Positions 41,352 to 63,179 of a stretch of 64,000 bases of DNA are shown one piece after another. The stretch is from the NCBI GenBank assembly GCA_963756875.1, contig CAVWPA010000003.1, positions 896,001 through 960,000 of the forward strand, read 5' to 3'. Under the pieces are notes generated by a model. It was not told where the DNA came from, searched no databases, and saw only the letters and a list, made by a program, of their open reading frames with translations. The stretch comes from an uncultured Verrucomicrobiae bacterium (GTDB taxonomy: Bacteria > Verrucomicrobiota > Verrucomicrobiia > Chthoniobacterales > UBA10450). The position numbers were made by a program, and so were the translations under genes. Position 1 is the stretch's first letter. Every line of letters starts with the position of its first letter.

Positions 41352-43768
41352 AGATGGTGCGCGGCACAGCCGCCCTTCTTGGGCTGGCGATGCTGGTGGC
41401 AAGCGCGGTTCTCGCCCAGCGACCGGTGGAAATACGTCGAGCCCAGCCGGTGGATGAAACCCCAGCGCCCACGGTGGCGCCTTCCGCCGAGCCCAGCGCC
41501 GCGCCGGTGGAAGCGGAAGCGCTGGAGCACCGTCAACTCCGGTATGCAAACGCGCTTTTCACTCGAAAACTCTACGATCTCGCGCGCCCCGAATATCAAA
41601 AGTATCTGGATGATTATCCCGGAGCATCTGGAAGAGCCAATGCCTATTTTTCGTTAGGCGAATGTGAGCGAAATCTTGGCCACGCTTCGAGTGCCCGAAC
41701 GAACTTTCAAAAAGTGCTGGATGATTATGGCGACAGCGATTTCGCCGGACCGGCGGCCTACGCTTTGGCCGAGATGGCGTTTACTCACAAAGACTACGCG
41801 ACCGCGCTTCCATTGTTTCATCGCTCCGCCGGGAAATCCAAGGAAGCAGCCGTGGCGCTTTCGGCGCGCTACTTCGAAGCGCGTTGTCTCGAGGCTATCG
41901 GGCACAAGGACGAAGCATGCGACATTTATCAGGCAGTGGCTGAAGCAAAGGATCCAAATCCATATCGCGCAGATGCGCGTGCGACAGCCGCCTCGATCGC
42001 GCTGTCGCGGGGGCGAAAAGCCGACGCTCTGACGCAGTACGCGGCGCTTGCCAATGAGACACAGAAACCCGCGTTGAAAGCGGAGGCAACCGTGCGTGCC
42101 GGTCTGCTTGCGGTCGATCTTGCACAACCGGAAAAAGGAAAGGTCGACAAGGCCATGGGCGAAAAGGCGATGACACTGCTTAAAAAGGGCCGTTCGCTCC
42201 CCGAGGCGGGCCGCTGGCGGGCGCTGGCCCAGGTTGGTATCCTGCGCTTGGAGTATCAACTGGGTGAGTTCGATCAGTTGGCCGGCGATTACCAAAAAAT
42301 CCTTCCGAATGTGCCGGAAGAAGCGCGTGCCGAAGTCATGTTGTTTGCTGCGAATGCTGAGCGGCAACTGGGGCATGCTCAGGAAGCCGAAACGCTCTAC
42401 CGCGAGATCATCGACAAATATCCGAACCGCGAAGAGGCCAGGGACGCGCGTTACCAGAGGCTGATCAATGTCTACAACTCCGATCCCTCCACGCTTCCGC
42501 CGGAGGTCGACGAATTCCTTGCTACCAATCCGACCACGGAGCGCGCTGATCAGGCGAAATTGCTAAAGGCGGAGGCGCTTTATAAGCAGCAAAATTATCC
42601 GCGCGCAGCTCCAATCTATGCCGAGCTGCGCGCCTCGCAGCTTTCGCCAAAGTTGCGCACCGAAGCGGCGCTAAAGCTCGGTTTGTGCTGCATTCAAATG
42701 AAGGATAACGCGGGGATCATCGAAGCCTTTACCTACTTCGTGCAGGCCTTCCCCGATAGCCCGCAGGCGCCTTTCGCCTTTGCGCAGCGCGCGCTCGCGT
42801 ACCAGGAAGACAAGAATTACGACGCGGAGCTTTCAGACTTGAACATGATTCTGACGAAATATCCTGACGCGCACGAGCGTGAAGCCGCGTTACAACAGAA
42901 GGCGCTCATTCTGGGCGAGCAACAGGACACTAACGGGATGATCGCAACATTCCGCCGGCTTCTAAAGGAGTTTCCGAAAAGTCCGGTCGCGGCACAAGCG
43001 CAGTACTATATTGGGAAAGCCGCCTTTGAAGCAAAAGACTACAAGACTGCACTGACCGCTCTCGATGCCGCCCGCCAGTTGGACAAAGATCAATATTACA
43101 ATCTCGCCACGGTTCGCATCATTTCGTCTTACTTTTATCTGCATAATCGGGCTGCGGTGACCAGGGAAGTGGATCAATTCATGTCTGAGAGCCCGAACGC
43201 TGTCGTTCCGGGCGAGATCCTGGAATGGCTCGGGATCCAATATTACAACGAAAAAAATTACGTCGCGGCCGAGAAATATTTGAGCGCCCTCGGGAAGACC
43301 GATAATCCGGCGCGTGTGAAGCCCGACTTTTGGTTTTATCTCGGAGACGCCTCCACGAAATTGAAGAATTTCGATGAAGCGGAGCAGGCGTTCGCCAAAT
43401 ATCTGGAGAAAGCTACCGATCCGGCGGGAAAAACGAAGGTGCTGCTGGCGCTCGGGGCGGTGAAAATCGCAGCGGACAAACCGGATGACGCGCAAAAGAT
43501 TGCGGAGCAGATCATGGCGCTGCAACCGGAAGGACGAGTGAATGCGGAGGCGCGGATGCTCGCGGGGGATGTCCAGTTCGAGCGCGGAAGTTTTGAGGAT
43601 GCGGGCAAGACATTTGCAAGCGTTGCTTTGCTTTACGATGATCCCGCGATTACGCCGCGTGCATTGCAAAAGGCGGCGCGGGCTTATCAAAAAGCAGGCA
43701 AAACCGATCAGGCCGACCGACTGACCCGGCAATTGCGGGAGAAATATCCAAACTACGCCGGAGGTTAG
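41348..43768 (+). CDS. Periplasmic all-TPR protein (CpoB/BamD-like repeats)
   Basis: Signal peptide; many TPR pairs ending YP/FP; coupled to exbD by an ATGA overlap. Confidence 0.88.
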   Translation: MKMVRGTAALLGLAMLVASAVLAQRPVEIRRAQPVDETPAPTVAPSAEPSAAPVEAEALEHRQLRYANALFTRKLYDLARPEYQKYLDDYPGASGRANAYFSLGECERNLGHASSARTNFQKVLDDYGDSDFAGPAAYALAEMAFTHKDYATALPLFHRSAGKSKEAAVALSARYFEARCLEAIGHKDEACDIYQAVAEAKDPNPYRADARATAASIALSRGRKADALTQYAALANETQKPALKAEATVRAGLLAVDLAQPEKGKVDKAMGEKAMTLLKKGRSLPEAGRWRALAQVGILRLEYQLGEFDQLAGDYQKILPNVPEEARAEVMLFAANAERQLGHAQEAETLYREIIDKYPNREEARDARYQRLINVYNSDPSTLPPEVDEFLATNPTTERADQAKLLKAEALYKQQNYPRAAPIYAELRASQLSPKLRTEAALKLGLCCIQMKDNAGIIEAFTYFVQAFPDSPQAPFAFAQRALAYQEDKNYDAELSDLNMILTKYPDAHEREAALQQKALILGEQQDTNGMIATFRRLLKEFPKSPVAAQAQYYIGKAAFEAKDYKTALTALDAARQLDKDQYYNLATVRIISSYFYLHNRAAVTREVDQFMSESPNAVVPGEILEWLGIQYYNEKNYVAAEKYLSALGKTDNPARVKPDFWFYLGDASTKLKNFDEAEQAFAKYLEKATDPAGKTKVLLALGAVKIAADKPDDAQKIAEQIMALQPEGRVNAEARMLAGDVQFERGSFEDAGKTFASVALLYDDPAITPRALQKAARAYQKAGKTDQADRLTRQLREKYPNYAGG

Positions 43769-43775
43769 ATCGTGG

Positions 43776-44342
43776 TCAGGCGGTCGCAATCGCAAGCGTT
43801 TCGATCGGCAGCGGCGAGAGGAATTCTTTCGTATCGTCGATTTGCAAAACAGGGCGCGCGAGATGCGCGGCGAGAAAACTGGTGTCAGGCGTAAGAGCAA
43901 TTCCCACCCGAGCGATAATCTCGCATTTGGCCAGTTGTTCGGTTACGTGCAGGAGCTTCTCGGCCGGGCTTTCGAGCCATGGAGCCTCGCCAGGATTTCG
44001 ATGCAATCGGCTGTTGTCTGTAAATTGGATCGTGCAGATACCGGGCGCAGTCGCTTCGATAAACGGACTGAGAGTAAACGCGTGCTGAAGCAGGATTTCC
44101 TGGATTAAATTCTCCTGCTCGCGCGCTCGCACTTTGATTGCGACATGCAAAAAACGAGCCAGTGCCTGACTCGGGGTCATGCCTTTGCGAATGCCGGCCG
44201 ATTCGGCCGGTTCGTTCAGTTGAATAATGACCGGTTTCTTTTCCTGTTCCTCAATCAAGGCGGCGGGCTTCGTCCACAGTTCCGGTTGATGCCGCAACGC
44301 GGCCTGCAGATAAAAATCAGGCAAATAAATTGTCGCAAACAT
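43776..44342 (-). CDS. imuB: Short ImuB-like protein (Y-family polymerase N-terminal part only)
   Basis: IYLPDFYLQ, N..AE.AGIRKGMT.SQA, SPFIE, GIA.T, FLSPLPI; no catalytic DE; directly follows imuA. Confidence 0.72.
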   Translation of the reverse strand: MFATIYLPDFYLQAALRHQPELWTKPAALIEEQEKKPVIIQLNEPAESAGIRKGMTPSQALARFLHVAIKVRAREQENLIQEILLQHAFTLSPFIEATAPGICTIQFTDNSRLHRNPGEAPWLESPAEKLLHVTEQLAKCEIIARVGIALTPDTSFLAAHLARPVLQIDDTKEFLSPLPIETLAIATA

Positions 44343-45056
44343 TTAAATGATGGAGGGACACACGCTGCCTGCCTCGCCGAAGCTGTGCGAAGGCGGGTCG
44401 TGTCCCAAATATTCGGCGCCGACGGCGCGGCGCCCTCCAGACGAGCGTTGGATGCGGAAATGCAGTCGCGAAATCGCGGTCTCTTGTTCAAAAGTTTCCA
44501 GCGTCCACGAATTTTCGAGAACGATTTTCAATTGCGCGCTGGCGACCATGTCATGGCGCGTCAAAACGAGGAAGGCCGTGGACGATCCTTCAACCAGGCG
44601 CTGCAAACGATACCAGCTCGCCTGGGGAATTTTACGCAGCTCTTCCGGAACGTTCAGGACGAGATCGAGAACAAGCAGCGGGAAATTGCCATCGCGTAAA
44701 AGAAGATCGGCGGCCTTGATCGCGTGCCACGCTGTGCTGCAACGCGCCCAAAGTATGTGACTTAAACATGCGTTGCCCAGCGGCTGGGGATCGAAAGAAT
44801 CGCGACCATCGATCAACGCGATGTAATACCGGTCGCGCTGCGCGGCTTGAAGAAGCGCATGAATAAGCGACGCGCTGCCCGCACTCATCTGCGGGCTGAT
44901 CAATTCAGTGATGAGGCTTTTAGGCAGACCGCCGCCGATTACTTCATCGAGAAAAGAAACCCCGGTAGCCAAAAACGTCCCGGGAGACAGGGGAGGGCGG
45001 GGAAAACGCTCAGCCAGTAATTTTCGCAGATCGACGACCTTAGCGCTCGCTGCCAT
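44343..45056 (-). CDS. imuA: ImuA (RecA-like)
   Basis: TG...LD...GGGLP, ITEL, degenerate Walker A, IDGRDSFDP, ADLLLRDGNFPLLVLD. Confidence 0.82.
   Translation of the reverse strand: MAASAKVVDLRKLLAERFPRPPLSPGTFLATGVSFLDEVIGGGLPKSLITELISPQMSAGSASLIHALLQAAQRDRYYIALIDGRDSFDPQPLGNACLSHILWARCSTAWHAIKAADLLLRDGNFPLLVLDLVLNVPEELRKIPQASWYRLQRLVEGSSTAFLVLTRHDMVASAQLKIVLENSWTLETFEQETAISRLHFRIQRSSGGRRAVGAEYLGHDPPSHSFGEAGSVCPSII
44351..44439. repeat. REP-like pair (TGGAGGG...CCCTCCA) inside the imuA 3' end, with a 30-bp insert
   Basis: Two mirrored hairpins; the left one is interrupted by CCTGCCTCGCCGAAGCTGTGCGAAGGCGGG (44368-44397). Confidence 0.75.
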
Positions 45057-45084
45057 ACCCAAAGGATGGCACGAAGAATCGACA

Positions 45085-45098
45085 TGTTCAAGTGAACA
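45085..45098. promoter_or_regulatory. LexA box upstream of imuA
   Basis: TGTTC-AAGT-GAACA matches the Verrucomicrobia SOS box and overlaps the -35 of a TTGAAC-17-CATCCT promoter on the minus strand. Confidence 0.9.
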
Positions 45099-45173
45099 TT
45101 TTCACTTCTCGTCCCGTTTTGGTAGGGCGTTCGCCGCGGCGGACGCCGCTTTAGATTGGAAGCCGCTTCGCTT

Positions 45174-45791
45174 TCAGCGCGACTTCCGACGCGCCTGTTT
45201 TCGCACCAGCGAAACCATCACACCCTGGATTTTCAATTCACGGGCCGGAATCAGATTCGGATAATCCGGGTTTTCGGCTTTTAAATACGGGCGGCCACGC
45301 TCCGTCACATAACGTTTCAGCGTTGTTTCACCGTCGATCAACGCCGCCACGATATCGCCGTTGTGCACTTCCTTGCTCTCCTCCAGAATCACAATATCTC
45401 CGTCGAGAATGTGGGCGCCGATCATTGAATCGCCACGCACGCGCAGAGCGAAGGTGCCGCGGCTTCTTGAAACGTTGGCCGAGCGCGTATCGAGAGAAAC
45501 GTGTCCTTCAATGGTCTGCTCCGTCGGCGCCGACATGCCTGCTGGGATCTGCCCATAGATCGGAACGTCTGTGATCCGAACCTTTTGCACCGGTGTCACC
45601 AGGGCGCGTGCTTTCCGCGCGTGTCGGGAGATGAATCCTTTTCGTTCGAGCGCGGCGATGTACTGCATCACCGATGTCTGGCTGGCGAAACCGAAATGAT
45701 TTTGAATTTCGCGCGTGCTCGGCGTGATCCCTTTCTCTCGCTGTTCGCGCTGGATAAAATCGAGAACGTTCTTTTGACGGCCGGTCAGCAT
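45174..45791 (-). CDS. lexA: LexA repressor
   Basis: LT.RQ, PS.REI HTH, Ala-Gly cleavage site (IPAG), GDSM and TLKR. Confidence 0.97.
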   Translation of the reverse strand: MLTGRQKNVLDFIQREQREKGITPSTREIQNHFGFASQTSVMQYIAALERKGFISRHARKARALVTPVQKVRITDVPIYGQIPAGMSAPTEQTIEGHVSLDTRSANVSRSRGTFALRVRGDSMIGAHILDGDIVILEESKEVHNGDIVAALIDGETTLKRYVTERGRPYLKAENPDYPNLIPARELKIQGVMVSLVRKQARRKSR

Positions 45792-45824
45792 TCTTCAGGT
45801 TCGCTCAGAAACATCCCAGCGGCA

Positions 45825-45838
45825 AGTTCAAATGAACA
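45825..45838. promoter_or_regulatory. LexA box upstream of lexA
   Basis: AGTTC-AAAT-GAACA (one mismatch to consensus). Confidence 0.8.
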
Positions 45839-45889
45839 GATACGATAGTTAGACAGACGTTGAATCGTGAATTGGAGCTGGAAAGAGAG

Positions 45890-46131
45890 CCCTCACCTCG
45901 GTCCTCTGCCTGAGGGATAGGAGGACCAGCCTTGGCAACGCTGTGGCTCGGCCAGCGCGAAACGCCCGGTGAGGGTCAGTGGCACACCGATTTGCGACGC
46001 GCGCGCGCAATTTGGATGCTGCGATGGCGCGCTCGCCAACTTTCTCCCTTTCTGGTCGAGCTTGCGCGAGTCCAGCAAGTTCGTTGCGGCGAGGCGCCGC
46101 AACCAGCACGCGAGGCGCGTGCGCTTCCCAG
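45890..46131. repeat. Composite of repeat fragments
   Basis: CCCTCACCTCGGTCCTCT... (45890, same family as 30486) and a GGGAGCGCACGCG-family half at 46081-46131. Confidence 0.65.
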
Positions 46132-46181
46132 AGCTGAGGCGCGCCGGTCCGCCTAACTAACACTTCAAACGAGACAGTGCG

Positions 46182-46688
46182 CTAGCGGCCGGACCGGCCG
46201 CGCGATTTGGATTTTGGCGGCGGCGAGCTGGTGCTTGCGATCAGTTTGCCCGAGGCATCGTACACGGAATAACCGATCTGTTTGCCCGTCCGATCGTATT
46301 TATAAACAATCTTGTTTGCGACGGCGTCGTTTTCTTTCAGGTGGGTTTCCTGTTCCAGCCGGCCGGCGCCATCGTATTGATAGATGCTTTTAAAACGGAA
46401 CTTTTTGTCTGGGCCGAAGAAGATGCCGCTAACGAACCGTCCGGCATCATCGAGCTGGTAGATGGTTTTACCCATTGGCTTGCCGTTGGCACTGGTGGTG
46501 ACGGCTGTTGCCTGGTGGCGTTCATTATTAAATTGGTAGGTGGTGTGCGAGCCGTCGGCGTTGATGGCGACGGTGACGCGCACGGCATCCTTGTTATTGT
46601 CGTCGAGAAGCTGGCTGCGTGTTGTGGAAAGGAATGAAAAAGCGACGACGCAGGGAAAAACGAACAGAAGCGAACGCCGGAGGATCAT
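46182..46688 (-). CDS. Secreted hypothetical protein with YD-repeat-like beta-hairpins
   Basis: Signal peptide; repeats YQLDDAGR, YQYDGAGR, YKYDRTGK and YDASGK. Confidence 0.75.
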   Translation of the reverse strand: MILRRSLLFVFPCVVAFSFLSTTRSQLLDDNNKDAVRVTVAINADGSHTTYQFNNERHQATAVTTSANGKPMGKTIYQLDDAGRFVSGIFFGPDKKFRFKSIYQYDGAGRLEQETHLKENDAVANKIVYKYDRTGKQIGYSVYDASGKLIASTSSPPPKSKSRGRSGR

Positions 46689-46698
46689 CGAGGAGAAG

Positions 46699-47480: not shown

Positions 47481-48482
47481 ATGAATGCATTGTTGTTTGA
47501 ACGGCCGGTTTGGTTTGCGACCGGTCCATTGATCGTCGAGGAGGAGGCGCAGGAAATGGAGGACTTCAGTTATCACCGCCCCGTGCTGATGCAGGAAGTG
47601 GTGGAGTTGCTTGCGCCGCGCCCCGGGTCGCTTGTAGTCGATGCCACTGTCGGCGGCGGCGGTCACACGGAAGCGATTTTGAAAACCGGCGCCGATGTTC
47701 TCGCGCTCGACCAGGATCCGGATGCAATTCGGGAGGCGCGCGAGTCGCTTTCTCCGTACGGCGGCCGGGTTACATTGCGCCAGGCCAATTTTCGCGACGC
47801 CGCTCAAATTCTCGATGAGCTGGGAATCGCCGCAATTGGCGGCGCCCTTCTGGATATTGGCGTTTCGTCGCGGCAACTGGAAAACCCGAACCGCGGTTTC
47901 AGCATGATGCGCAACGGTCCGCTCGATATGCGGATGGATCCGCGGACGCAGTTGACGGCCGCGGACATCGTCAACCAGTACAGCGAAGAGGACCTCACGA
48001 GGTTGTTTCGCGATCTCGGCGAAGAGCCCGCGGCGCGGCGCATCGCCACGTTGATCGTGAAAATGCGCAAGGATGCGCCGTTTAGCGAAACGTTGCAGCT
48101 CGCGCGCGCCATTGAAAAAGTGGTCGGCAGGCATGGCCGCCGGCATCCGGCCACTCAGGCTTTTCAGGCGCTTCGGATGGAAGTGAACGACGAGCTGGGC
48201 GCGCTCGCCGAAGGCCTGCGCGTGCTGACCGCGAGGCTTGAGCCGGGCGCGCGCATTGCGGTCATCACGTTTCATTCGCTCGAAGATCGGATTGTGAAAA
48301 ACTTTTTCCGGGACCGCAGCCGTGAATGGCTGGACCGGCCCGAATGGCCGCAGCCGAAGCGCAATCCGGAACGCGACCTGACTTTGATTACACCAAAACC
48401 GGTTGAGCCCGGTGAGAACGAGCGACGCATGAACCCGCGCGCCCGCAGCGCAAAACTACGCGTGGCGGAGAAGATCCAATGA
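47481..48482 (+). CDS. rsmH: 16S rRNA m4C1402 methyltransferase
   Basis: HRPVL, DATVGGGGH, GPLDMRM, FQALRMEVN, FHSLEDR and RSAKLR. Confidence 0.97.
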   Translation: MNALLFERPVWFATGPLIVEEEAQEMEDFSYHRPVLMQEVVELLAPRPGSLVVDATVGGGGHTEAILKTGADVLALDQDPDAIREARESLSPYGGRVTLRQANFRDAAQILDELGIAAIGGALLDIGVSSRQLENPNRGFSMMRNGPLDMRMDPRTQLTAADIVNQYSEEDLTRLFRDLGEEPAARRIATLIVKMRKDAPFSETLQLARAIEKVVGRHGRRHPATQAFQALRMEVNDELGALAEGLRVLTARLEPGARIAVITFHSLEDRIVKNFFRDRSREWLDRPEWPQPKRNPERDLTLITPKPVEPGENERRMNPRARSAKLRVAEKIQ

Positions 48483-48844
48483 GCCGTTCCCGTAGAAAAA
48501 ATTGGAACACGGTCGACGCGGCCTCGCTGGCGCGCTGGATTGTGCTCACCGCGTTCGTGGCATTGATCGGGTTGAGCTATGTGTACCTGACGCTGCAACT
48601 TTATCACCTGGGCGATCGCAGGAAAGCTCTCGAGACCGAACTGGCCAGTCTGCGCGCGCAAAACGACGTGGCCCGCGATCAAATTGCGGCCTTGACGTCG
48701 CGGACCGCCTTGCAGCGGCGGTTGAAGGAAGGATATCTGAAGATGGTTCCAATCGGCGAGCACAACATCGTGCGGCTGACCATGCCGGCGCGAAACGAGG
48801 AAGATGCCGTTCAACCGGTATCCAATCAGCCCGTCACCAGATGA
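48479..48844 (+). CDS. ftsL: Cell division protein FtsL-like
   Basis: Basic N-tail, one TM, coiled coil; lies between rsmH and ftsI. Confidence 0.75.
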   Translation: MSRSRRKNWNTVDAASLARWIVLTAFVALIGLSYVYLTLQLYHLGDRRKALETELASLRAQNDVARDQIAALTSRTALQRRLKEGYLKMVPIGEHNIVRLTMPARNEEDAVQPVSNQPVTR

Positions 48845-50601
48845 AATGGAACAGCCGGACACGATGCGCGCTGGTGTGCCTTGGCTTTGTTCTGATCTTC
48901 AGCGGATTTTCGTTCCGGCTGATCTATCTGCAAATGATCAAGCACGACGAGTACGCAGGGATTGCCACTGAGAAACACGTTTACAAACAAACCATTTTTG
49001 CCGAGCGCGGCGCAATTCTAGACGCAAACAACGAGCTGCTCGCGAACAACGTTCCTGTCGAAACCGTGGTGGCGGACGCCACCCATCTTAATAATGCGGA
49101 CGCCACCATCGATCTGGTCGCCAGCAAGCTGAAGCTGCCGCACGCCGAAGTGGCGGAAAAATTGCGGGGCGATCGTCGCTACATTGTCGTCCAGCGAGCC
49201 GTGCCGGAAACGCTGGCGGAATCGTTACGGCAAGAACTGCGCGCCCAGAATCTGCGCGGCATTTATTTCGAGCACGATGCCATGCGGGTTTATCCGAACG
49301 GCTCGATGCTCTGTCACGTGATCGGGTTTACAGATTTCGAGCACCACGGCATTCAGGGCGTGGAAGCCTCGATGGACGCGTATTTGCACGGGCAGGACGG
49401 TTATCGTTACATCGAACACAATCGCGCCGGGCGGGAGATCGTTCTTTATCGCGGCCAGGAACGCGCACCGCGCGACGGCTACCAGGTCCATCTCACGATC
49501 GATCTGAATTTGCAGAACATCGTTGAAAACGAAATCGACGCTGCGATGCGCGAGTATTCTCCGAAAAAGGCGACGATCATTCTGATGCGGCCCCAGACCG
49601 GCGAGATCCTGGCATTGGCCAATCGCCCCAATTTCGATCTTAATCGTCGCTCGGAAGCAAAACCGGAGCAGATGAAAGACCGCGCCATCGTCGACATGAT
49701 GGAACCCGGCTCAACATTCAAGATCGTGACCGCGGCGGCCGCCCTCAACGAACACAAGGTTAATCTCAATTCCGTGATCTTTTGCCAAAATGGCGTTTGG
49801 CCCTTCGGCGGAAGACTTCTGCATGACGCTGAGCCACACGGCGAATTAAGCGTGAAAGATATTCTCGTGAAATCGAGCAATATCGGCGCGGCCAAGCTGG
49901 CGATTGGCGTCGGCGAGGACAAATTTTACGAATACATCCGCCGGTTTGGATTCGGCGAACGGACCGGGATCGAGCTTCCGGGCGAAATTCGCGGACTGGT
50001 CCATTCGCCGCAATCGTGGAGCAAAATCTCGATCACCCGGATTCCCATGGGACAGGAGATCGGCGTGACTCCATTACAAATGATCATGGCAATGGGGGCC
50101 ATCGCCAACGGCGGCAAATTGATGACGCCTCGCATCGTGAAATCGATTACCAGCAGCGATGGCAAAGCCGTCAGCTCGTTTTCGCCGGTTGTGTTGCGAC
50201 AGGTAATTTCTCCCCAGACGGCAAAAGAAATAGGAGAAGCCTTGCGCGGTGTCGTGAGCGATCGCGGCACCGCGGCGGCTGCAGCCGTTCCGGGTTTCGT
50301 TATCGCTGGCAAGACCGGTACCGCTGAGAAAGTCAGTCCGCACGGCGGCTACGAGAAGGGAAAGTATGTCGTTTCCTTTATCGGTTATCTTCCCGCGGAC
50401 CATCCAGCCTTCGTGGGGTTGGTCGTATTGGACGACGCGAAGACAAAACCGGAAATGAACTACGGCGGACTCGTTGCCGGCCCGATTTTTTCACGCATCG
50501 CCGAGAAAGCCGCCCGCTATCTCGATCTTGAACCGCATGAGGAAATTCGCAAAGCCATACCGGTAGACCGAGTCGCCTTAACCAATGCCCGGCACCATTG
50601 A
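48841..50601 (+). CDS. ftsI: Class B PBP (FtsI)
   Basis: RGAILD, EPGSTFK (SxxK), SSN and KTGT. Confidence 0.95.
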   Translation: MKWNSRTRCALVCLGFVLIFSGFSFRLIYLQMIKHDEYAGIATEKHVYKQTIFAERGAILDANNELLANNVPVETVVADATHLNNADATIDLVASKLKLPHAEVAEKLRGDRRYIVVQRAVPETLAESLRQELRAQNLRGIYFEHDAMRVYPNGSMLCHVIGFTDFEHHGIQGVEASMDAYLHGQDGYRYIEHNRAGREIVLYRGQERAPRDGYQVHLTIDLNLQNIVENEIDAAMREYSPKKATIILMRPQTGEILALANRPNFDLNRRSEAKPEQMKDRAIVDMMEPGSTFKIVTAAAALNEHKVNLNSVIFCQNGVWPFGGRLLHDAEPHGELSVKDILVKSSNIGAAKLAIGVGEDKFYEYIRRFGFGERTGIELPGEIRGLVHSPQSWSKISITRIPMGQEIGVTPLQMIMAMGAIANGGKLMTPRIVKSITSSDGKAVSSFSPVVLRQVISPQTAKEIGEALRGVVSDRGTAAAAAVPGFVIAGKTGTAEKVSPHGGYEKGKYVVSFIGYLPADHPAFVGLVVLDDAKTKPEMNYGGLVAGPIFSRIAEKAARYLDLEPHEEIRKAIPVDRVALTNARHH

Positions 50602-56578: not shown

Positions 56579-56580
56579 CG

Positions 56581-57717: not shown

Positions 57718-57742
57718 TTACGGATTCGAACCAACAACACTC

Positions 57743-58840
57743 ATGAACGCCATCATCGCATGTGGAGGGACCGGAGGACATCTTTTCCCGGGCATTGCCG
57801 TGGCCGAAACACTGCGCGCCCGCGGTCATCAGGTGATGTTGTTTGTTTCGGAAAAGGAGATCGACAGCCTGGCGCTTTCGACCCGCTCGGAATTCCAGTT
57901 TGAAAAGTTACCGACAATCGGCTTTCCCTCGTTGTCCTCGCCTGCCATTCTCGGATTCATCCGCCGTTTCATCGAAAGCCTTTCCATTTGCCGGTCCATT
58001 TACAAAAGATTTAATCCGCATGCAGTCCTCGGGATGGGGGGCTTTACTTCCACCGCGCCGATCATGGCCGGACGCATGCGCGGCATCTCCACTTTTATCC
58101 ACGAATCGAATGCCGTCCCGGGCAAGGCGAACCGGTTCACCGCGCGGATGGTGCGCGCCGTCCTGCTGGGTTTCAAGGAATGCGCGCAGTTCTTTCCCAA
58201 ATCACGCACCGAATTTACGGGCACACCCATTCGCAGCGAACTCAAACGGCTCGATCGGAAAATCGCGCGGGAGAAGCTTGGCTTAAGCGGCGACCTCGCC
58301 ACCTTGCTGGTGATGGGTGGGAGCCAGGGCGCCAGCGGGATCAACCGGGCCATGATTAAATCGTTGCCGTTATTGCACGATCTGCCGTTGCAAGTGATCC
58401 ATCTTTCCGGGGAGCGTGACGAAAGCCTTGTGGCGGACAATTACCGGCGCGAAAAAATTCCTGCCCATGTGGCTGCTTTTCATCATCGTATGGAAGAAGC
58501 TTACAGCGCTGCTGATCTTGCCGTCGCACGCTCCGGAGCCGCCAGCCTGGCCGAACTAGCGGCCTTTGCGCTGCCTGCCATCCTGATTCCGTTTCCCTAT
58601 GCGGCGGACGATCATCAAACGCGCAATGCCGAAATCTTTACCCGCGCCGAGGCGGCGATTCTTTTAAAAGAATCCGAGCTGTCGGCCGATTTGCTCGCGC
58701 ATAAAATCAAGGAACTCATTACTGATTCGGGAAAGCTTAAGCGGATGTCGGAAGCCGGCGGGCGCCTCGCTCCGAACGATGCGGCTGGCCGTGTCGTCGC
58801 AACCATGGAGGAATATACGAATCATGACGTCCATGCCTGA
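57743..58840 (+). CDS. murG: Lipid II GlcNAc transferase
   Basis: GGTGGH, HESN, GGSQGA, RSGAS and HQ..NA. Confidence 0.97.
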   Translation: MNAIIACGGTGGHLFPGIAVAETLRARGHQVMLFVSEKEIDSLALSTRSEFQFEKLPTIGFPSLSSPAILGFIRRFIESLSICRSIYKRFNPHAVLGMGGFTSTAPIMAGRMRGISTFIHESNAVPGKANRFTARMVRAVLLGFKECAQFFPKSRTEFTGTPIRSELKRLDRKIAREKLGLSGDLATLLVMGGSQGASGINRAMIKSLPLLHDLPLQVIHLSGERDESLVADNYRREKIPAHVAAFHHRMEEAYSAADLAVARSGAASLAELAAFALPAILIPFPYAADDHQTRNAEIFTRAEAAILLKESELSADLLAHKIKELITDSGKLKRMSEAGGRLAPNDAAGRVVATMEEYTNHDVHA

Positions 58841-61121
58841 TTCCAACCTGGCGACGGTGCTCACGCGCGAGCATCATAAAGTCCACCTCATCGGTGTCGC
58901 GGGCAGTGGAATGAGCGGGCTGGCCGCGCTGTTGCTCGAGCTCGGACACGAAGTCAGCGGATCGGACAAGGTCAGCACGCAGGAGACCGATCGTTTGCAA
59001 CGGCTCGGCCTGCGCTTTTTCAGGGGACATCGCGCCCAGGAGACAGCCGATGCCGAACTGATCGTTTTTTCGTCTGCAATCAAGGCCGACAATCCCATTC
59101 TCATTCAGGCGGCCAAGGCCGGGAAACCAATACTCCGGCGTGCCGAGGCTCTCGCCGCCCTCATGTCGGGCAAGCGGGGCATTCTCATTGCAGGCATGCA
59201 CGGGAAGACCACCACCTCCGCGATGACGGCGCATGTGTTACGCGAGGGCGGTTTGCACCCCTCACATTATGTTGGCGCGGAAATTCCCATTCTTGGGACC
59301 AACGCCCACTGGGACGCGCGCGGCGACTATTTTGTGGCCGAAGGAGACGAAAGTGACGGGACGATCAGGTTTTTTCATCCGGAACACACGCTTCTTCTTA
59401 ATATAGAGGAGGAGCACCTCGACTATTACGCGGACCTGGCCGCTATCGAGAAGGTCTTCACCCAGCTGATCGAGCAGACAAGGGGAAAAGTCTTTTACAG
59501 CGCCGATGATCGCCATGCGGCGCGAGTATGCGGAAGCTGCCCGCGCGGAGTCTCCTACGGTTTCGCCGAAGGGGTCGATTATCGAGGCGCCGACGTCGAG
59601 CTGAAAGACTTTACGTCGAACTTCAGTGTTTATCATGGCGGCAAACGGCTTGGGGAAGCAGTCTTGAATGTTCCGGGAGAACATAACGTTCATAATGCGG
59701 TCGGTGTAATCGCGCTGGCGACCGAGCTTGGAATTCCCTTCGAAAAAATCGCCGCCTCATTGCGCAAGTTCGAACACGCGCGTCGCCGGTTTGAAATCAA
59801 ATATGCGAGCGACCGTTTTTTGCTGGTGGACGATTACGCGCATCATCCCACTGAAATTCGGGCGACGCTGAAGACGGCGCGGGCAACGCGACACAAGCGG
59901 GTGTTAACGATGTTCCAACCGCATCGCTTTTCACGAACGAAGGCGTTATGCAGGGAGTTTGGCCGGTCTTTTGACGATGCGGACAAGGTTGTTGTCACAG
60001 ACGTCTATGCCGCCAGCGAAACGCCGCTGCCCGGCATCAGCGGCAAAACGATTGCCGACGAAATCATGGCGCATGGACACACCGGAGTGACATATGAGCC
60101 GCGGCTGAACTGGGTCCATCGCGACATTGGCAATATGCTCGATCCCGGAGATCTTGTGCTGAGCCTGGGTGCCGGAAACATTCACGAACAACTATCGATC
60201 CTGGCCGCAGATCTTGTGGTCGCCGAAAGCTTGAAGGCGATCGTCGGTGAAGAAGGCGAAGTACGTCTGTACGAACCGCTCTCCAAACATACGACACTGC
60301 GAGTAGGCGGTCCGGCGCAATTCTGGGTGGAGCCGCGCAGTGAAAGGGCCTTTGCAGAAGTAATTCGCCTTTGCGCGAGCGAAAACCTCCCGCTTTTTGT
60401 TATCGGCCGCGGTTCCAATCTGCTGGTGCGCGACGGTGGAATTTCCGGCGTCGTCGTTCATCCCTGCGGGGGCGATTTCGACAAGATCCAGATCCACGGC
60501 GAGGAAATTAGCGCTGGCGCAGGGGTTAAATTAAAGGAGCTGGCGTACGCCGGAAAGAAAGCCGGTCTCACCGGCCTCGAATGGATGGAAGGGATTCCCG
60601 GGGAAGTCGGCGGCGGGTTGCGCATGAATGCCGGAGCGATGGGTGCGCAGACTCTCGAGAACGTCGTTAGTGTTCGCTATCTCGATGCAGAAGGAAATCC
60701 ACACACCAAGAGGCGTGATGCGCTGGAAGTGCATTACCGGAACTTCCCGCTGCTGAAGAATAATTTTGCCGTTTCCGCGACCTTTCGAGGGAAACCTGCG
60801 CCCGGCAGCGAGATTATTCGGAAGCTGGGAGAATCGCAGGAAAAACGGCGCACCAGTCAGCCAATCGCCAAAAGCGCGGGGTGTATTTTTAAGAACCCGG
60901 ATTCATGCCCGGCTGGAAAACTGGTCGATGAACTGGGACTCAAAAATTCGCATGTTGGAAATGCCCGTGTTTCCGACGTGCACGGGAATTTCATTGTGAA
61001 TGACGGCGGGGCCACCGCGGCGGAGATGCTGGAACTAATCGACAGGATCAAGACGACTGCGCGAACAAAGCGGGGGATCGAATTGGAAACCGAAGTGCAA
61101 ATTGTGGGAGAGCCCGCATGA
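58824..61121 (+). CDS. murC: MurC-MurB fusion protein
   Basis: MurC motifs (GSGMSG, HGKTTT, DESD, DDYAHHPTE, FQPHR) continue in frame into MurB motifs (HTT.RVGG, G.GSN, MNAGA, SAGCIFKNP, HGNF). Confidence 0.95.
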   Translation: MTSMPDSNLATVLTREHHKVHLIGVAGSGMSGLAALLLELGHEVSGSDKVSTQETDRLQRLGLRFFRGHRAQETADAELIVFSSAIKADNPILIQAAKAGKPILRRAEALAALMSGKRGILIAGMHGKTTTSAMTAHVLREGGLHPSHYVGAEIPILGTNAHWDARGDYFVAEGDESDGTIRFFHPEHTLLLNIEEEHLDYYADLAAIEKVFTQLIEQTRGKVFYSADDRHAARVCGSCPRGVSYGFAEGVDYRGADVELKDFTSNFSVYHGGKRLGEAVLNVPGEHNVHNAVGVIALATELGIPFEKIAASLRKFEHARRRFEIKYASDRFLLVDDYAHHPTEIRATLKTARATRHKRVLTMFQPHRFSRTKALCREFGRSFDDADKVVVTDVYAASETPLPGISGKTIADEIMAHGHTGVTYEPRLNWVHRDIGNMLDPGDLVLSLGAGNIHEQLSILAADLVVAESLKAIVGEEGEVRLYEPLSKHTTLRVGGPAQFWVEPRSERAFAEVIRLCASENLPLFVIGRGSNLLVRDGGISGVVVHPCGGDFDKIQIHGEEISAGAGVKLKELAYAGKKAGLTGLEWMEGIPGEVGGGLRMNAGAMGAQTLENVVSVRYLDAEGNPHTKRRDALEVHYRNFPLLKNNFAVSATFRGKPAPGSEIIRKLGESQEKRRTSQPIAKSAGCIFKNPDSCPAGKLVDELGLKNSHVGNARVSDVHGNFIVNDGGATAAEMLELIDRIKTTARTKRGIELETEVQIVGEPA

Positions 61122-61164
61122 ATTTTAATTTACGGTCACTGCCAAACACGAGCGTAACGATTTG

Positions 61165-62100
61165 ATGAAGAAGGAAAATTTACCGAAAAAGATTGCGGTG
61201 CTGATGGGCGGACCGAGTTCGGAGCGTGACGTTTCCATGGCAACCGGGCGTGGAATTGCCAAGGCACTTCGTTCGTTAGGCGCCGAAGTCGTTGAGGTGG
61301 ATGTTCGGGACGAGAATTTTCAACTTCCGGCAGATGTCGGGCTTGCATTCATCGCTTTGCATGGAACGTTCGGCGAGGACGGCCAGGTGCAGAAAATTCT
61401 CGAAAACCGCGGCGTCGCATACACCGGCGAAGGTGTGAAGGGGAGCGAACTCGCTTTCGACAAAATTCGGTCGAAGGAAAAATTCCGGGAACGCGGAGTC
61501 ACCACACCAAAATGGGAGGTCGTGCGACCGGGACAACGGCCGACGATTCCCCTTCCAGTTGTGGTGAAAGCGCCGCGGCAGGGATCGACTGTTGGGGTTT
61601 ACATTGTTCGGACCGAGGACGAGCTGGATTCTGCTTTGCGCGACGCCTTGAAATACGATCGCGAGTTGCTGGTAGAAGAGTTTATTCCCGGCCGGGAACT
61701 CACGGTTGGAATTCTGGGCGACCAAACGCTGCCGATCATCGAAATTATTCCCAAGGGCGGCTTTTACGATTTTACAAACAAGTACCCATTTTTGAATCCG
61801 CAGGCCGGGGGCGGTGCCGAGCATGTTTGTCCGGCGAAGATCGAGGCGGAGATGACGAAGCGGATTCAGGAACTCGCAATGAAGGCCCATCGCGCGCTCG
61901 GCCTGGAAGTTTATTCGCGAGTCGATGTCATCTTGCCGGAAAGCGGCGAGCCGACCGTCCTTGAGACGAACACCATTCCAGGAATGACGGAGGCAAGTCT
62001 GCTGCCCGAAGCCGCCGCCGCCGCGGGGATCGGCTACGTCGATCTTTGCTCGCGGATTATCGAGCTCTCACGCGCCAGAATGGAGCGGGCGTCGAAATGA
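61165..62100 (+). CDS. ddl: D-alanine-D-alanine ligase
   Basis: GG.SSER.VS, LHG.FGEDG, GRELT, YDF..KY and E.NTIPG.T. Confidence 0.97.
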   Translation: MKKENLPKKIAVLMGGPSSERDVSMATGRGIAKALRSLGAEVVEVDVRDENFQLPADVGLAFIALHGTFGEDGQVQKILENRGVAYTGEGVKGSELAFDKIRSKEKFRERGVTTPKWEVVRPGQRPTIPLPVVVKAPRQGSTVGVYIVRTEDELDSALRDALKYDRELLVEEFIPGRELTVGILGDQTLPIIEIIPKGGFYDFTNKYPFLNPQAGGGAEHVCPAKIEAEMTKRIQELAMKAHRALGLEVYSRVDVILPESGEPTVLETNTIPGMTEASLLPEAAAAAGIGYVDLCSRIIELSRARMERASK

Positions 62101-63179
62101 AACGCGTGCAACAGCGACCCCGCGCGCGGAACGAGCGTTTTTCGAACCGGCGCCAGCGTCGTCAGCAGCATTTGCTCGACGTGAAGGTGCGCTCTCGCAA
62201 AGCCGTCCAACATCGGAACCGCCGGGTCCTGGTCTTTTTGTCGAAGATCGCGCTGGTCATCGCGCTCGGTGCCGGCATTTACGTGGGCATATACGAAGGA
62301 GCGAAGCGCCTGCTCTTCGAAAACCCGGATTATCGACTGCGCGTGATCGATACGCAGACAGATGGTACCCTGCAGCGCGAGCAGATTTTGCAAACCACCG
62401 GGTTACACGAAGGCGAAAATATTTTCCGCGTGAACCTGTCCGAGGTTCACGATTTATTGCAACAATTGCCGCAGGTGGACGAAGTGCAGATCGTCCGGAA
62501 ATTGCCGGGAGAGGTCGACATCAGGATTACGGAGCGCAAACCGGTTGCCTGGATCACGAGCGAAAAAGAAATCGCCGACCCATTTGCGTCGGACGCCGCT
62601 TTTCTGGTGGACGCGCGCGGCATTTTGATGAAGGAGAAGAAATTGCTGCCGGAATATCTGGGATTGCCATTCATTCTGGGGTGCTCGGACGAGTCGTTCG
62701 AGGCGGGAAAAGTTGTCGAATCGTTTGAAGCAAAAGCGGCGTTGGAGCTGTTGCGGTTAAGCGCGCGTAGCTTTATGCAGACGCGCTTTCAAATTCGTGA
62801 GATCGACGCCTCAAAGGGTTATTGCCTTGTGGTGACCGACAAGAACCACACACGGGTCACTTTCGGTTTCGACAATCTCGAAACTCAATTGCAGCGCCTC
62901 GAACAATTTCTAATTTACTCGGACGACTCGAGGCAGGAGCTGGCAACTGTCAATCTGCTGGTGCAGCGCAACATTCCAGTCACGTTCGCAAAGCCGCCGG
63001 CGGATGTGATCAACGATACAATCAAGCCGGAGGAAACGCCGCGCATAATGAAAGCGGTCCCGGTACATCACAAGACAACAGCCGCTCCGCCGAAATCGCA
63101 CCCCAGAGCAACCCCGTTGCCGGTCCGCCGGGCGATTCCGGTTCAGCAGTTCAAGAAGGAGAAGAAGAATGGGCAATAG
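62097..63179 (+). CDS. ftsQ: Cell division protein FtsQ/DivIB
   Basis: Basic tail, TM, POTRA domain (LP.V....I.R.LP), ERKP and LVD..G; position in the cluster. Confidence 0.88.
   Translation: MKRVQQRPRARNERFSNRRQRRQQHLLDVKVRSRKAVQHRNRRVLVFLSKIALVIALGAGIYVGIYEGAKRLLFENPDYRLRVIDTQTDGTLQREQILQTTGLHEGENIFRVNLSEVHDLLQQLPQVDEVQIVRKLPGEVDIRITERKPVAWITSEKEIADPFASDAAFLVDARGILMKEKKLLPEYLGLPFILGCSDESFEAGKVVESFEAKAALELLRLSARSFMQTRFQIREIDASKGYCLVVTDKNHTRVTFGFDNLETQLQRLEQFLIYSDDSRQELATVNLLVQRNIPVTFAKPPADVINDTIKPEETPRIMKAVPVHHKTTAAPPKSHPRATPLPVRRAIPVQQFKKEKKNGQ

Follow-up and report, generated by a model that had tools for sequence, protein, structure and literature searches.

The window analysed here, 64,000 nucleotides from a soil bacterium of the order Chthoniobacterales (Verrucomicrobiota), raises the question of why proteins of quite different kinds should share one short peptide in their periplasmic termini. 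A preliminary description of the sequence had located four such peptides in an ExbBD-linked TPR protein, in FtsI and in FtsQ; all four translate as claimed at the positions given, and the Pfam domains of the host proteins agree with those names. The features concerned are these:

40063..40914, forward strand: ExbB/TolQ-type proton channel gene, heading an ExbB-ExbD-TPR cluster (Pfam MotA_ExbB, E 8.7e-29)
40944..41351, forward strand: ExbD/TolR-type gene (Pfam ExbD, E 1.3e-25)
41348..43768, forward strand: 806-aa periplasmic TPR solenoid protein with a signal-peptide-like N-terminus (14 Pfam TPR families)
41432..41452, forward strand: motif copy IRRAQPV in the TPR protein, from the translation
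48841..50601, forward strand: FtsI, the dcw-cluster class B PBP, with its ATG at 48841 (Pfam PBP_dimer and Transpeptidase)
50545..50565, forward strand: motif copy IRKAIPV in the FtsI C-tail, 11 residues before the C-terminus
62094..63179, forward strand: FtsQ, the ATG at 62094 being taken as the start (Pfam POTRA_1 and FtsQ_DivIB_C)
63045..63065, forward strand: motif copy IMKAVPV in the FtsQ tail, from the translation
63123..63143, forward strand: motif copy VRRAIPV in the FtsQ tail, 11 residues before the C-terminus

The 3' end of the ExbD gene, for which alignment A2 (24 rows) gives a mean column identity of 80%, overlaps the start of the TPR gene, and IRRAQPV lies five residues past the predicted signal-peptide cleavage site of the TPR protein (between VLA and QRPVE). 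FtsI is preceded by an FtsL-like ORF of 121 aa at 48479-48844, while the frame of FtsQ is likewise open from an alternative TTG start at 62046. Elsewhere in the genome the motif recurs in these proteins:

Class A PBP: ILKAIPV and IRRAEPV in the C-tail
Second class B PBP, besides FtsI: ends in VRRAEPVQDDQSD, with a copy 6 residues before the C-terminus
PBP2-like protein: VARAVPV
RodZ-like protein: IRRAEPV, internal in a linker, ~95 residues before the end
DUF1353 lipoprotein: VKRAKPV and IQRAIPV

The copies in the class A PBP and PBP2 stand 25-33 residues before the C-terminal end. In the RodZ-like protein Pfam detects only an N-terminal HTH_25 domain, and its database relatives bear the RodZ label. 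Four of the six PF00905 proteins of the host genome have the motif, and the two motif-free members are without a long disordered tail. The carriers span peptidoglycan synthesis (a class A PBP, three class B PBPs, RodZ and FtsQ), so that the original grouping of divisome and Exb components, although its members are genuine, was too narrow for a motif that covers most of this machinery. Its placement in disordered periplasmic termini of non-homologous proteins was borne out. AF2 models the TPR protein as 40 helices over residues 59-799 (mean pLDDT 88.4), whereas pLDDT falls below 50 both in residues 1-55, which include the motif, and in the class A PBP tail (residues 726-875), indicating that these segments are disordered.

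The frequency of the motif was compared with chance using a crude gene call of our own for the host genome (2,516 ORFs, 777,188 residues), with the pattern of the preliminary description, [IV][RM][RK]A.PV, as the tight form and [IV].[RK]A.PV as the wide form. Seven tight matches were observed, against a mean of 0.40 when whole proteins were shuffled (maximum 2) and 0.35 when shuffling was confined to 40-residue blocks, which preserves the make-up of the tails; 0 of 200 shuffles reached seven in either case. The motif therefore exceeds the expectation from composition, the check on frequency that had been proposed for it. Wide matches numbered 10 against 4.3 in shuffles, 3 of 200 of which reached 10, a modest 2.3-fold excess, so that genome-wide enrichment is clear for the tight form only; a generalised pattern admitting also the second spelling described below is not enriched in the host genome (13 against 8.1 in shuffles). 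All seven tight matches fall in six envelope proteins (the TPR protein, FtsI, FtsQ twice, RodZ, a class B PBP and the class A PBP), while nine of the 10 wide matches fall in seven envelope proteins and the other in ribosomal protein L2 (ITRAKPV). With a scoring matrix built from 133 instances in relatives, the host genome excluded, eight sites reach at least 18 bits against 0.3 in shuffled sequence, and all eight lie in the motif-bearing envelope proteins. Identity among the 11 copies in the host genome is 72% at codon positions 1 and 2 and only 27% at third positions, which shows that the likeness is held at the protein level and is not that of a DNA repeat.

Conservation was surveyed in 40 relatives, with family and order counts that use full-length orthologues and take in three unpublished genomes (G002, G007, G014), related genomes not being independent samples. 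The motif forms conserved islands within fast-changing tails, most strongly in the class A PBP, RodZ, FtsQ and the TPR N-terminus. Motif columns are 0.6-0.9 conserved against 0.0-0.4 in flanking linkers; for PRIMKAVPV of FtsQ the corresponding values are 0.6-0.9 and 0.2-0.4 (25 family sequences). At the TPR N-terminus the strict form [IV]x[RK]AxP[VI] is found in 15 of 20 full-length family orthologues, a loose variant in 20/20, and the strict form again in 4/5 from other families of the order; TPR homologues from other families of the class (f53, f58, f49, f51, f55) have no recognisable N-terminal motif. The class A PBP has it in 18/19 family orthologues, 15 with at least two copies, and in 6/8 from other families of the order, the equivalent figures for RodZ being 16/17 and 3/5. 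In FtsQ, 21 of 24 family orthologues have at least one copy and nine at least two, while two of five from other families of the order have one. Conservation of the motif in orthologous tails, as the preliminary description envisaged it, thus holds for FtsQ in the family and is patchy for FtsI, where the IRKAIPV site has a motif in 7/21 full-length family orthologues, plus one truncated, and in 0/6 from other families. The second class B PBP has it in 9/22 family orthologues and 0/7 outside the family, and PBP2 has the strict form in 9/20. FtsI gained the motif in 8 genomes and the second class B PBP in 9; seven of the nearest genera have it in both proteins, and the FtsI copy looks like a recent acquisition in the nearest genera. 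In the tails of 77 diverse FtsQ representatives (6,474 residues) the wide pattern turns up 44 times, whereas their folded parts (20,364 residues) contain a single match; only 27 of the 77 tails hold it. The motif is not universal. A copy in a host deacetylase, VRVATPV, is not kept, motif-like copies occurring in just one of 29 other loci.

A second spelling of the motif occurs in another order, in the Akkermansia-type family f20, whose closest named relatives are Akkermansia. Here the Chthoniobacterales form [IV]-x-[RK]-A-x-P-V is replaced by I-P-x-A-[AE]-P-[VI]; positions 1, 4, 6 and 7 are retained, and positions 2 and 3 switch jointly across proteins. AQEN-IPDAAPV or the like stands at the TPR N-terminus in 5/6 loci, ED-IPLAEPI-EE at the FtsQ C-end in 3/5 (with one further IPDAEVV) and IPVAEPV in the PBP2-like tail in 4/5, while all six named Akkermansia FtsQ records have the IPLAEPI-type ending. 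A back-translated DNA pattern gives 7-12 matches per f20 genome against 0-2 for a reversed control. In one of these genomes (G117), 10 of 12 matches lie within six envelope proteins, the carriers being the class A PBP, PBP2, FtsQ, the TPR protein, an OmpA-family protein and a polysaccharide deacetylase (the last three Pfam-confirmed). In the Akkermansia-type OmpA-family protein four copies stand in tandem, spaced exactly 10 residues apart, and a further four lie at the C-end of the class A PBP. Such coordinated respelling across proteins argues for a single shared binding partner.

The motif is selected at the protein level, lies in disordered segments and recurs in unrelated envelope proteins. 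It probably serves the proteins of cell-wall synthesis and division as a common docking tag, and on balance we favour, from the sequence comparisons, a shared docking motif for one putative periplasmic partner of the cell-wall machinery; both protein binding and a partner common to all carriers are what we infer from these patterns. Displayed on intrinsically disordered tails in the periplasm, the core Phi1-x-x-Ala4-x-Pro6-Phi7 would act as a short linear docking motif, tethering class A and class B PBPs, FtsQ, RodZ and the ExbBD-linked TPR protein to that partner, often through several copies, and so gathering or positioning the cell-wall machinery. It may be bound as a polyproline-II-like stretch, a shape in which positions 1, 4 and 7 share one face and 3 and 6 a second, matching the conserved positions. 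The docking or localisation peptide first suggested for the window therefore gains support, in that the motif behaves as such a peptide might, with conserved islands, multiple copies, gain and loss, and joint respelling.

Several other explanations have to be weighed against this. Tails rich in Pro, Ala, Val and Arg could yield look-alike heptapeptides without function; the tails are of low complexity, the wide pattern is in only modest excess, and the lone copies in ribosomal protein L2 and the deacetylase are themselves taken as chance. However, we find this scarcely credible, given block shuffles that retain tail composition, conserved motif columns between divergent flanks, third codon positions free to vary and a respelled motif on the same proteins in another order; the conservation data contradict it. 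Alternatively, the motif could bind peptidoglycan or another envelope polymer, the avidity of multiple copies holding wall enzymes at the sacculus. All carriers act on or at peptidoglycan, the Akkermansia-type proteins bear arrays of up to four copies, and the Chthoniobacterales spelling is basic. Yet the Akkermansia-type spelling is acidic (DD-IPVAEPV-EE) while Ala4, Pro6 and the hydrophobic ends are conserved, so that charge attraction is not; strict small and hydrophobic side chains suggest a shaped protein pocket, and the OmpA and LysM carriers possess wall-binding domains of their own. We consider wall binding improbable. More improbable again is that a periplasmic protease recognises or cuts the motif and thereby tunes the level or maturation of wall enzymes. 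Prc trims the C-terminus of E. coli FtsI, TPR adaptor-protease pairs acting on wall enzymes are known (8sxf), and some copies lie near C-termini, the class B PBP having one 6 residues away and FtsI and FtsQ one each at 11. The motif nevertheless has no fixed position, being N-terminal in the mature TPR protein, internal, or 6 to ~95 residues before the C-terminus, which tells against the protease tag that the preliminary description had offered as an alternative, and tandem arrays and copies ahead of folded domains are unlike a C-terminal tag.

Two further possibilities place the receptor within the ExbBD-TPR cluster. One, a special case of docking, is that the periplasmic ExbD/TolR dimer or a TonB_C/TolA-type domain grips the motif, coupling clients and TPR protein mechanically to a proton-driven motor. 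The TolA box lies at the N-terminus of mature TolB, which TolA captures, and the motif that opens the mature TPR protein is in a position like that of the TolA box and of Ton boxes. Translation of the TPR gene is coupled to that of ExbD; both motor genes, ExbB and ExbD, adjoin it in 25 of 30 loci of the order (one of them in two, with three cut off upstream), and one or both adjoin its homologues in 21 of 27 loci of the class. The host genome also has seven TonB_C-like ORFs and a separate tolQ-tolR-tolA-tolB cluster. From the published accounts, there is a precedent in the capture by ExbD of a short proline-flanked TonB peptide (PMC10907165), and a 2025 survey describes an uncharacterised TPR gene that accompanies tolQR-like motors in PVC bacteria (PMC12204202). 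Against this, the TonB peptide, the D-box, is an unbroken strand of alternating hydrophobic and polar residues, whereas the motif is interrupted by a proline and includes a basic pair, and most copies are at the far end of PBP tails, away from the inner membrane. Moreover, in genome G037, which is 99% complete, the class A PBP retains VQRAIPI and VRRAEPV, although protein and profile searches of that genome found no TPR orthologue (best score 46 bits), and the cluster ExbD likewise had no orthologue among its matches (63.7 bits, compared with 199-205 in G027 and G032); the cluster is consequently not the sole receptor. We regard the motor as unlikely to be the partner. G037 retains another ExbD/TolR-like gene. 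The other possibility, a slightly more doubtful one, is that the groove of the TPR solenoid receives the motifs of the PBPs, FtsQ and RodZ, its own copy serving self-association or auto-inhibition. TPR solenoids bind extended peptides, the TPR adaptors NlpI, LbcA and CpoB organise wall enzymes, and the present protein, itself a 40-helix solenoid, is found in both motif-bearing orders with its own copy respelled along with the rest. Foldseek returns generic TPR matches with low TM scores (0.17-0.31), including a Campylobacter flagellar-motor periplasmic scaffold (9hmf) and LbcA of the CtpA-LbcA protease complex (8sxf). Still, G037 has the motif without the TPR protein, and the possession of a motif makes the TPR protein resemble another client. 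AF2 single-chain models dock the motif neither on its own TPR solenoid, where the N-terminal copy has a pLDDT of ~33, nor on its own PBP domains.

We found no description of this motif in the literature, and the interest of the docking interpretation is that it would give the cell-wall machinery a new short linear motif acting in the periplasm, by a mechanism inferred here. The FtsZ C-terminal peptide and clamp-binding motifs are tail peptides that bring many unrelated proteins to one hub; peptides of this kind are easily gained and lost and co-evolve with their hub. These systems are cytoplasmic with known hubs, while the present motif is periplasmic and its hub putative. The Ton box and TolA box form strands, and their clients are TonB-dependent transporters or TolB. 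Like the TPR motif, they are N-terminal peptides exposed after the signal peptide in clients of a proton-driven system, with one motif serving many clients and one receptor domain, but the clients here are peptidoglycan synthases together with FtsQ and RodZ, in which the motif mostly occupies the C-terminal tail. The TonB D-box, as presented by Loll et al. (2024, PMC10907165), is likewise a short, conserved, proline-bounded peptide in a disordered or proline-rich periplasmic segment, encoded beside or with an ExbBD motor and placed at the start of the periplasmic part. It differs in being a beta strand on membrane-anchored TonB, whereas the present motif, with its internal proline and a basic or proline pair, occurs on a secreted TPR protein and many unrelated wall proteins. 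In B. subtilis, PBP1 and RsgI have disordered extracytoplasmic regions (Brunet et al. 2022, PMC9732909), and there too the disordered tail of a class A PBP matters for where and when wall synthesis acts, but in the model as outlined in that paper it is disorder itself that senses gaps in the wall, without a defined motif shared by several proteins. The coordination of CpoB (YbgF), TolA and PBP1B in E. coli (Gray et al. 2015, PMC4458516) offers a further parallel, the TPR protein there likewise having its gene among TolQR-type motor genes and a functional connection with a class A PBP. CpoB is small and makes contacts through folded domains, that account apparently describing no peptide motif common to CpoB and PBPs, whereas the present TPR protein is a solenoid of 806 aa, connected with the wall proteins by a heptapeptide that they have in common.

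Translation of the window returns exactly the four heptapeptides that the preliminary description had reported, and Pfam agrees with the hosts it named, the TPR protein encoded after ExbB and ExbD, FtsI and FtsQ. All three do carry the motif, [IV]x[RK]AxPV in periplasmic disordered tails, but it is far more widely shared than that carrier set implied: a six-frame scan of the 2.69-Mb assembly (56.8% G+C) located five further carriers, making eight carrier proteins in this genome.

Carriers of the motif in this genome, with the motor genes that precede the TPR gene (C3 is the contig that includes the window, at C3:896001-960000, and C1 another contig)
Window 40063-40914: ExbB (Pfam), upstream of ExbD and the TPR gene
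Window 40944-41351: ExbD (Pfam), directly before the TPR gene
Window 41348-43768: TPR protein, 806 aa (Pfam); IRRAQPV at 41432-41452
Window 48841-50601: FtsI (Pfam PBP_dimer and Transpeptidase); IRKAIPV at 50545-50565
Window 62094-63179: FtsQ (Pfam POTRA_1 and FtsQ_DivIB_C); IMKAVPV at 63045-63065, VRRAIPV at 63123-63143
C3:121373-123997 (locus L004): class A PBP, 875 aa; ILKAIPV and IRRAEPV in a long Pro-rich C-tail
C3:159028-161097 (locus L003, ORF 3026-5098): second class B PBP, 690 aa; C-end ..PQVRRAEPVQDDQSD
C3:1214259-1216634 (locus L005, ORF 3260-5638): PBP2-like class B PBP, 792 aa; VARAVPV
C1:115197-116156, adjoining FtsK: RodZ-like protein, 320 aa; IRRAEPV between membrane helix and C-terminal domain
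C3:488080-488985: DUF1353 lipoprotein; VKRAKPV and IQRAIPV

Six proteins of the genome contain the PF00905 domain, and the four with disordered C-tails all bear the motif, while it is absent from the other two, a PbpC-like protein and a short-tailed class A PBP of 747 aa. In the C-tail carriers it lies 6-33 residues from the C-end; the TPR copy sits at the mature N-terminus and the RodZ copy is internal.

Chance does not readily account for these occurrences. In a predicted proteome obtained by a crude gene call on a codon-usage score (2,516 ORFs, 777,188 residues, 87% of the genome), the tight pattern of the preliminary description, [IV][RM][RK]A.PV, occurs 7 times, in excess of a composition-based expectation that averages 0.40 in whole-protein shuffles and 0.35 when residues are shuffled in blocks of 40 so that tail composition is kept; none of 200 shuffles reached 7 in either case. 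The looser [IV].[RK]A.PV gives 10 matches against 4.3 expected (3/200 shuffles reach 10), and nine of the ten fall in seven envelope proteins, the tenth being ribosomal protein L2. A generalised pattern covering both spellings of the motif discussed below, [IV][RP].A.P[VI], was dropped as too loose (13 against 8.1 in shuffles). With a scoring matrix built from 133 instances in relatives only, the genome under study being excluded, eight sites here reach the cut-off of 18 bits, compared with 0.3 in 20 shuffles; all eight are in carrier proteins, and the second class B PBP is among them although its orthologues had been left out of the training set. Among the 11 genomic copies, agreement is 72% over codon positions 1 and 2 but only 27% over position 3, which indicates a signal at the protein level and not a repeated DNA element.

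Orthologues were gathered from 40 relatives, 24 in the host's own family (f1) and 16 in other families of the Chthoniobacterales; the resulting counts take in the unpublished genomes G002, G007 and G014, and related genomes are non-independent samples.

Conservation of the motif in Chthoniobacterales (strict: [IV]x[RK]AxP[VI], counted within the relevant terminal part of full-length frames)
Class A PBP: f1 18/19 strict, 15 with at least two copies; other families 6/8 strict, 8/8 loose
RodZ: f1 16/17 strict; other families 3/5; extended form PE[VI]RRAEPV[RH]PEDL
FtsQ: f1 21/24 strict, nine with two copies; other families 2/5 strict, 4/5 loose
TPR protein: f1 15/20 strict, 20/20 loose; other families 4/5 strict
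PBP2: f1 9/20 strict, 14/20 loose; other families 1/7 strict
Second class B PBP: f1 9/22 strict; other families 0/7
FtsI: f1 7/21 strict, with one further truncated copy; other families 0/6

Conservation in orthologous tails, which the preliminary description had raised for both of its division proteins, is thus borne out for FtsQ (21/24 within the family) and is patchy for FtsI (7/21, and 0/6 outside it). The DUF1353 lipoprotein was found in f1 only, in 21/24 genomes, with a strict copy in 10/22 loci. Alignments of the tails of FtsQ (n=25), class A PBP (n=20) and RodZ (n=18) present the motif as an island, its columns being 0.6-0.9 conserved against 0.0-0.4 for the linkers. Only the nearest genera have the copies in FtsI and in the second class B PBP, with seven genomes having both, and this looks like a recent recruitment of new carriers.

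An unbiased DNA pattern applied to a complete relative, G020 (100% complete), gave 15 matches against three for the reversed pattern that served as a control. Known carriers account for eight of these: FtsQ and PBP2 with two each, and the TPR protein, class A PBP, second class B PBP and RodZ with one each. The remaining seven are in arginine-rich frames that, by eye, look non-coding. The scan produced no additional carriers. A word-based search, for which the RodZ motif region was the query and other protein families were the target, returned RodZ homologues only; [VI]RRAEPV is present in 73/73 of them, but they were chosen by words from that very region. Among 150 best FtsQ cluster representatives (P0078-P0227), 78 have a recognisable fold end, N-[IVLT]-P-V-.., and 77 of these have tails of at least 15 residues, in 27 of which [IV]x[RK]AxP[VI] occurs. 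Over the 6,474 tail residues the wide pattern is found 44 times, compared with once over the 20,364 folded residues of these proteins, and the motif in FtsQ tails is accordingly frequent without being obligatory.

The tails have other conserved features. Many tails of the FtsQ representatives close with a basic piece resembling [KQ]-P-F-[RK]-x-N-G, such as KKPFRQNG or KPFRLH, and FtsQ of this genome continues beyond its last motif copy with QQFKKEKKNGQ (window 63144-63179). Two more islands, PDVEPEADAQG+V and NFFERLFG, occupy the last 110 residues of PBP2 with columns at 0.9 in 21 family sequences. Elsewhere in the order, other families retain an FF-x-x-LF-like piece, and these islands may be further docking peptides. 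Orthologues of the second class B PBP throughout the order retain its extreme C-end, E[ED]D[EQ]SD (or ..D.SN), including those that have lost the motif before it. Class A PBPs of Chthoniobacterales (L004 and relatives L132-L161) end in a conserved ..PPP..(F) piece and those of Akkermansia-type genomes (L262-L271) in ..LPAPKPIxIPVPEFIHL; in both groups the disordered tail comes after a DPY[NH]S/T piece.

A polysaccharide deacetylase was rejected as a ninth carrier in Chthoniobacterales, its VRVATPV being unique to this genome; at that site the deacetylases of relatives read ..P[QP]ITF[NS]xVHV.., which is the start of the fold. One deacetylase of G020 (L411, C4:470408-474235) does have PRAEPV-A-PRAIPV after its signal peptide, the family's other deacetylases being without the motif; this parallel to the Akkermansia-type deacetylase described below is a sporadic gain.

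The carrier encoded with a motor is the TPR protein. ExbB and ExbD lie directly upstream of it in 25/30 loci of the order, two loci having one of them and three being cut off, and the TPR start usually overlaps the ExbD stop. All 23 aligned orthologues have, by eye, a cleavable-looking signal peptide ending A-x-A|Q; the motif begins 1-6 residues past the cleavage site (as in ..SAFAQE|VRRALPV) and is often followed by a second, degenerate copy. The AlphaFold2 (AF2) model, from an alignment of 23 of the 30 TPR loci (left out were four cut-off loci, one whose start was wrong and two whose start was unclear), is a 40-helix solenoid over residues 59-799 with mean pLDDT 88.4, preceded by residues 1-55 with pLDDT below 50, predicted to be disordered, that include the motif at 29-35. 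For class A PBP, the alignment comprised 26 of 29 relatives (L135, L137 and L149 were omitted as cut, interrupted by a stop or frameshifted), and residues 726-875 have pLDDT below 50, with the motifs at 828-834 and 844-850. In neither single-chain model does the motif dock in cis, its segments staying at low confidence. A binding test of the motif, run without controls, scored 0.01 and 0.00 against a mark of 0.32, which weighs neither for nor against binding. Foldseek with the TPR model retrieved generic TPR solenoids only, with low TM scores.

A separate tolQ-tolR-tolA-tolB cluster lies at C3 694.5-698 kb; only the TonB_2 match was checked by family search.

C3:690000-702000 (L280), 4558-7960, minus strand: tol-like cluster of a TolQ-like protein (251 aa), a TolR-like protein (138 aa), a Lys/Pro-rich TonB_2-domain protein (341 aa) and a propeller (402 aa)

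There are seven TonB_C-like ORFs in the genome. An exported protein of 404 aa (C1:522508-523722, minus strand) has TonB_C as its C-terminal domain and a region that, by eye, resembles a trypsin-type protease; TRKAEPA, a weak likeness of the motif, lies close to its N-terminus. The ORF that lies downstream of the class A PBP gene was set aside as a partner candidate, having no Pfam family and no export signal. Between the ExbBD-TPR and dcw clusters (window 43776-45791, minus strand) lie a LexA-like repressor ORF (45174-45791) and two upstream ORFs. A GlgE-like maltosyltransferase (window 37826-39797) is split over two overlapping frames, an N/S and catalytic part at 37826-39346 and a GLGE_C part at 39279-39797; a sequencing error, a frameshift or a broken gene could explain the split. 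Another large TPR protein (1,120 aa, window 16258-19617) has IPAAAPV, the Akkermansia-type spelling, at residue 687; this may be chance.

That second spelling belongs to f20, a family of another order whose close named relatives are Akkermansia. The class A PBP tails of f20 have the Chthoniobacterales spelling in 0/9 loci, and FtsI has the motif in 0/5. At the N-terminus of f20 TPR homologues we find AQEN-IPDAAPV, AQEE-IPSAEPV or AQEN-IPDAEPV in 5/6 loci and PPRAEPV in the sixth; FtsQ ends ..YED-IPLAEPI-EE in 3/5 genomes and ..EE-IPDAEVV-E in one; and the PBP2-like protein has ..DD-IPVAEPV-EE in 4/5 genomes and IPMAEEV in the fifth. A back-translated DNA pattern yields 7-12 matches per f20 genome against 0-2 for the reversed control, and in G117 ten of the twelve fall inside six envelope proteins.

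Carriers in the f20 genome G117
Second class A PBP: four copies at the C-end
PBP2: carrier
FtsQ: carrier
TPR protein: carrier
OmpA-family protein with a membrane helix: four tandem copies at an exact spacing of 10 residues
Polysaccharide deacetylase: two copies after the signal peptide

The close named relatives of G117 FtsQ are Akkermansia records (83-96% identity), and 6/6 end ..IPLAEPI[EA]E; in G102, another genome, IPDAAPV occurs in a dcw-cluster protein that has two LysM domains. The carrier set in f20 therefore differs from that in the genome under study. To judge from these sequences, both orders invariably keep positions 1 (I/V), 4 (Ala), 6 (Pro) and 7 (V/I), and positions 2 and 3 change jointly in all carriers from R-[RK] to P-x between the orders. 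Such coordinated respelling in unrelated proteins is what a single shared, co-evolving binding site would predict, and we regard it as the strongest single argument for one.

The heptapeptide is most likely a short linear docking motif, given the disorder of its surroundings, its conservation as islands, its several copies and the ease of its gain and loss. Positions 1, 4 and 7 are invariant with a three-residue period, 3 and 6 form a second conserved set, and 2 and 5 vary; such an arrangement would suit a polyproline-II-like stretch that offers two of its three faces to a pocket. The docking or localisation role proposed in the preliminary description is in part supported by the conserved islands and the multiple non-homologous carriers, but the link it drew to Tol/Exb components is weakened by G037, a relative that is 99% complete. 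Its class A PBP keeps VQRAIPI and VRRAEPV, yet protein and profile queries found neither a TPR orthologue nor an orthologue of this ExbD. One receptor that we considered is a motor component such as ExbD. The linkage of the TPR gene and the position of its motif at the N-terminus bring to mind the D-box and the TolA box of TolB; the residue pattern differs from that of the D-box, however, and G037 also speaks against it, as it does against the TPR solenoid being the sole receptor. Peptidoglycan itself was a further candidate, but the Akkermansia spelling is acidic, which counters simple charge binding. The protease tag that the preliminary description had offered as an alternative is excluded in its C-terminal (Prc/Ctp-type) form by position, copies ranging from the mature N-terminus and internal sites to 6-33 residues from the C-end.

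Beyond a docking motif, a more ambitious reading, which we think unlikely, is that Verrucomicrobiae possess a periplasmic 'address code', in which a polyproline-type heptapeptide, respelled in each lineage, would plug all peptidoglycan machinery into a single hub, with an ExbBD-type proton motor driving or positioning that hub via the TPR scaffold. Its clients would be class A and class B PBPs, FtsQ and RodZ, which in Akkermansia the OmpA-family, LysM and deacetylase proteins would join. If this were true, proton-motive force would be physically coupled to wall synthesis and division. To our knowledge, little is understood, except in model Proteobacteria and Firmicutes, of how bacteria unite envelope-spanning motors with division proteins and wall synthases, and a peptide common to nearly all these proteins would give a direct, testable handle on a hub that organises the cell wall. 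Its reach would be the whole class, including the abundant soil Udaeobacter group and gut Akkermansia, and with seven residues and clear invariant positions it could be used as bait for partners, as a competitor that disturbs wall synthesis and as a key for searching the network.

The nearest concepts are the motor-coupling peptides, namely the D-box, the Ton box and the TolA box, the last being the N-terminal motor-coupling peptide of TolB, but the motif does not share the D-box pattern. A periplasmic dimer of ExbD captures a proline-flanked peptide of TonB, the D-box, which is described as seven residues alternating hydrophobic and polar with prolines on the flanks (PMC10907165), whereas ours has the form Phi-[R/P]-x-A-x-P-Phi (Phi, hydrophobic) with an internal proline. 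Moreover, the D-box follows the membrane anchor of a TonB/TolA-type transducer, while the TPR motif follows a cleavable-looking signal peptide (23/23, by eye) and other copies are in C-terminal tails. The disordered tail of Bacillus subtilis PBP1 (PMC9732909) is not known to have a defined motif, unlike that of the class A PBP here. In PVC bacteria, according to a 2025 survey (PMC12204202), tolQR-like motors are accompanied by an uncharacterised TPR gene; the gene order there is another one and includes vWA proteins. The six motif strings occur in no paper of the searched literature, and no description of the motif was found in that on Verrucomicrobia PBPs, periplasmic short linear motifs or ExbBD with TPR proteins. 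We conclude that the heptapeptide represents a new class of periplasmic motif, which marks the peptidoglycan machinery of two or more orders of Verrucomicrobiae and whose putative function is suggested by how its sequences behave. A comparable TPR protein is CpoB, a small protein that consists of a coiled coil at the N-terminus and a short TPR domain and is encoded in the tol-pal operon with tolA, tolB and pal. In the CpoB-TolA-PBP1B system a TPR protein is reported to tie the Tol motor to a class A PBP (PMC4458516). The protein described here is likewise encoded with ExbBD-type motor genes, but it differs from CpoB in being an 806-aa solenoid of 40 helices that lies away from the tolQ-tolR-tolA-tolB cluster.
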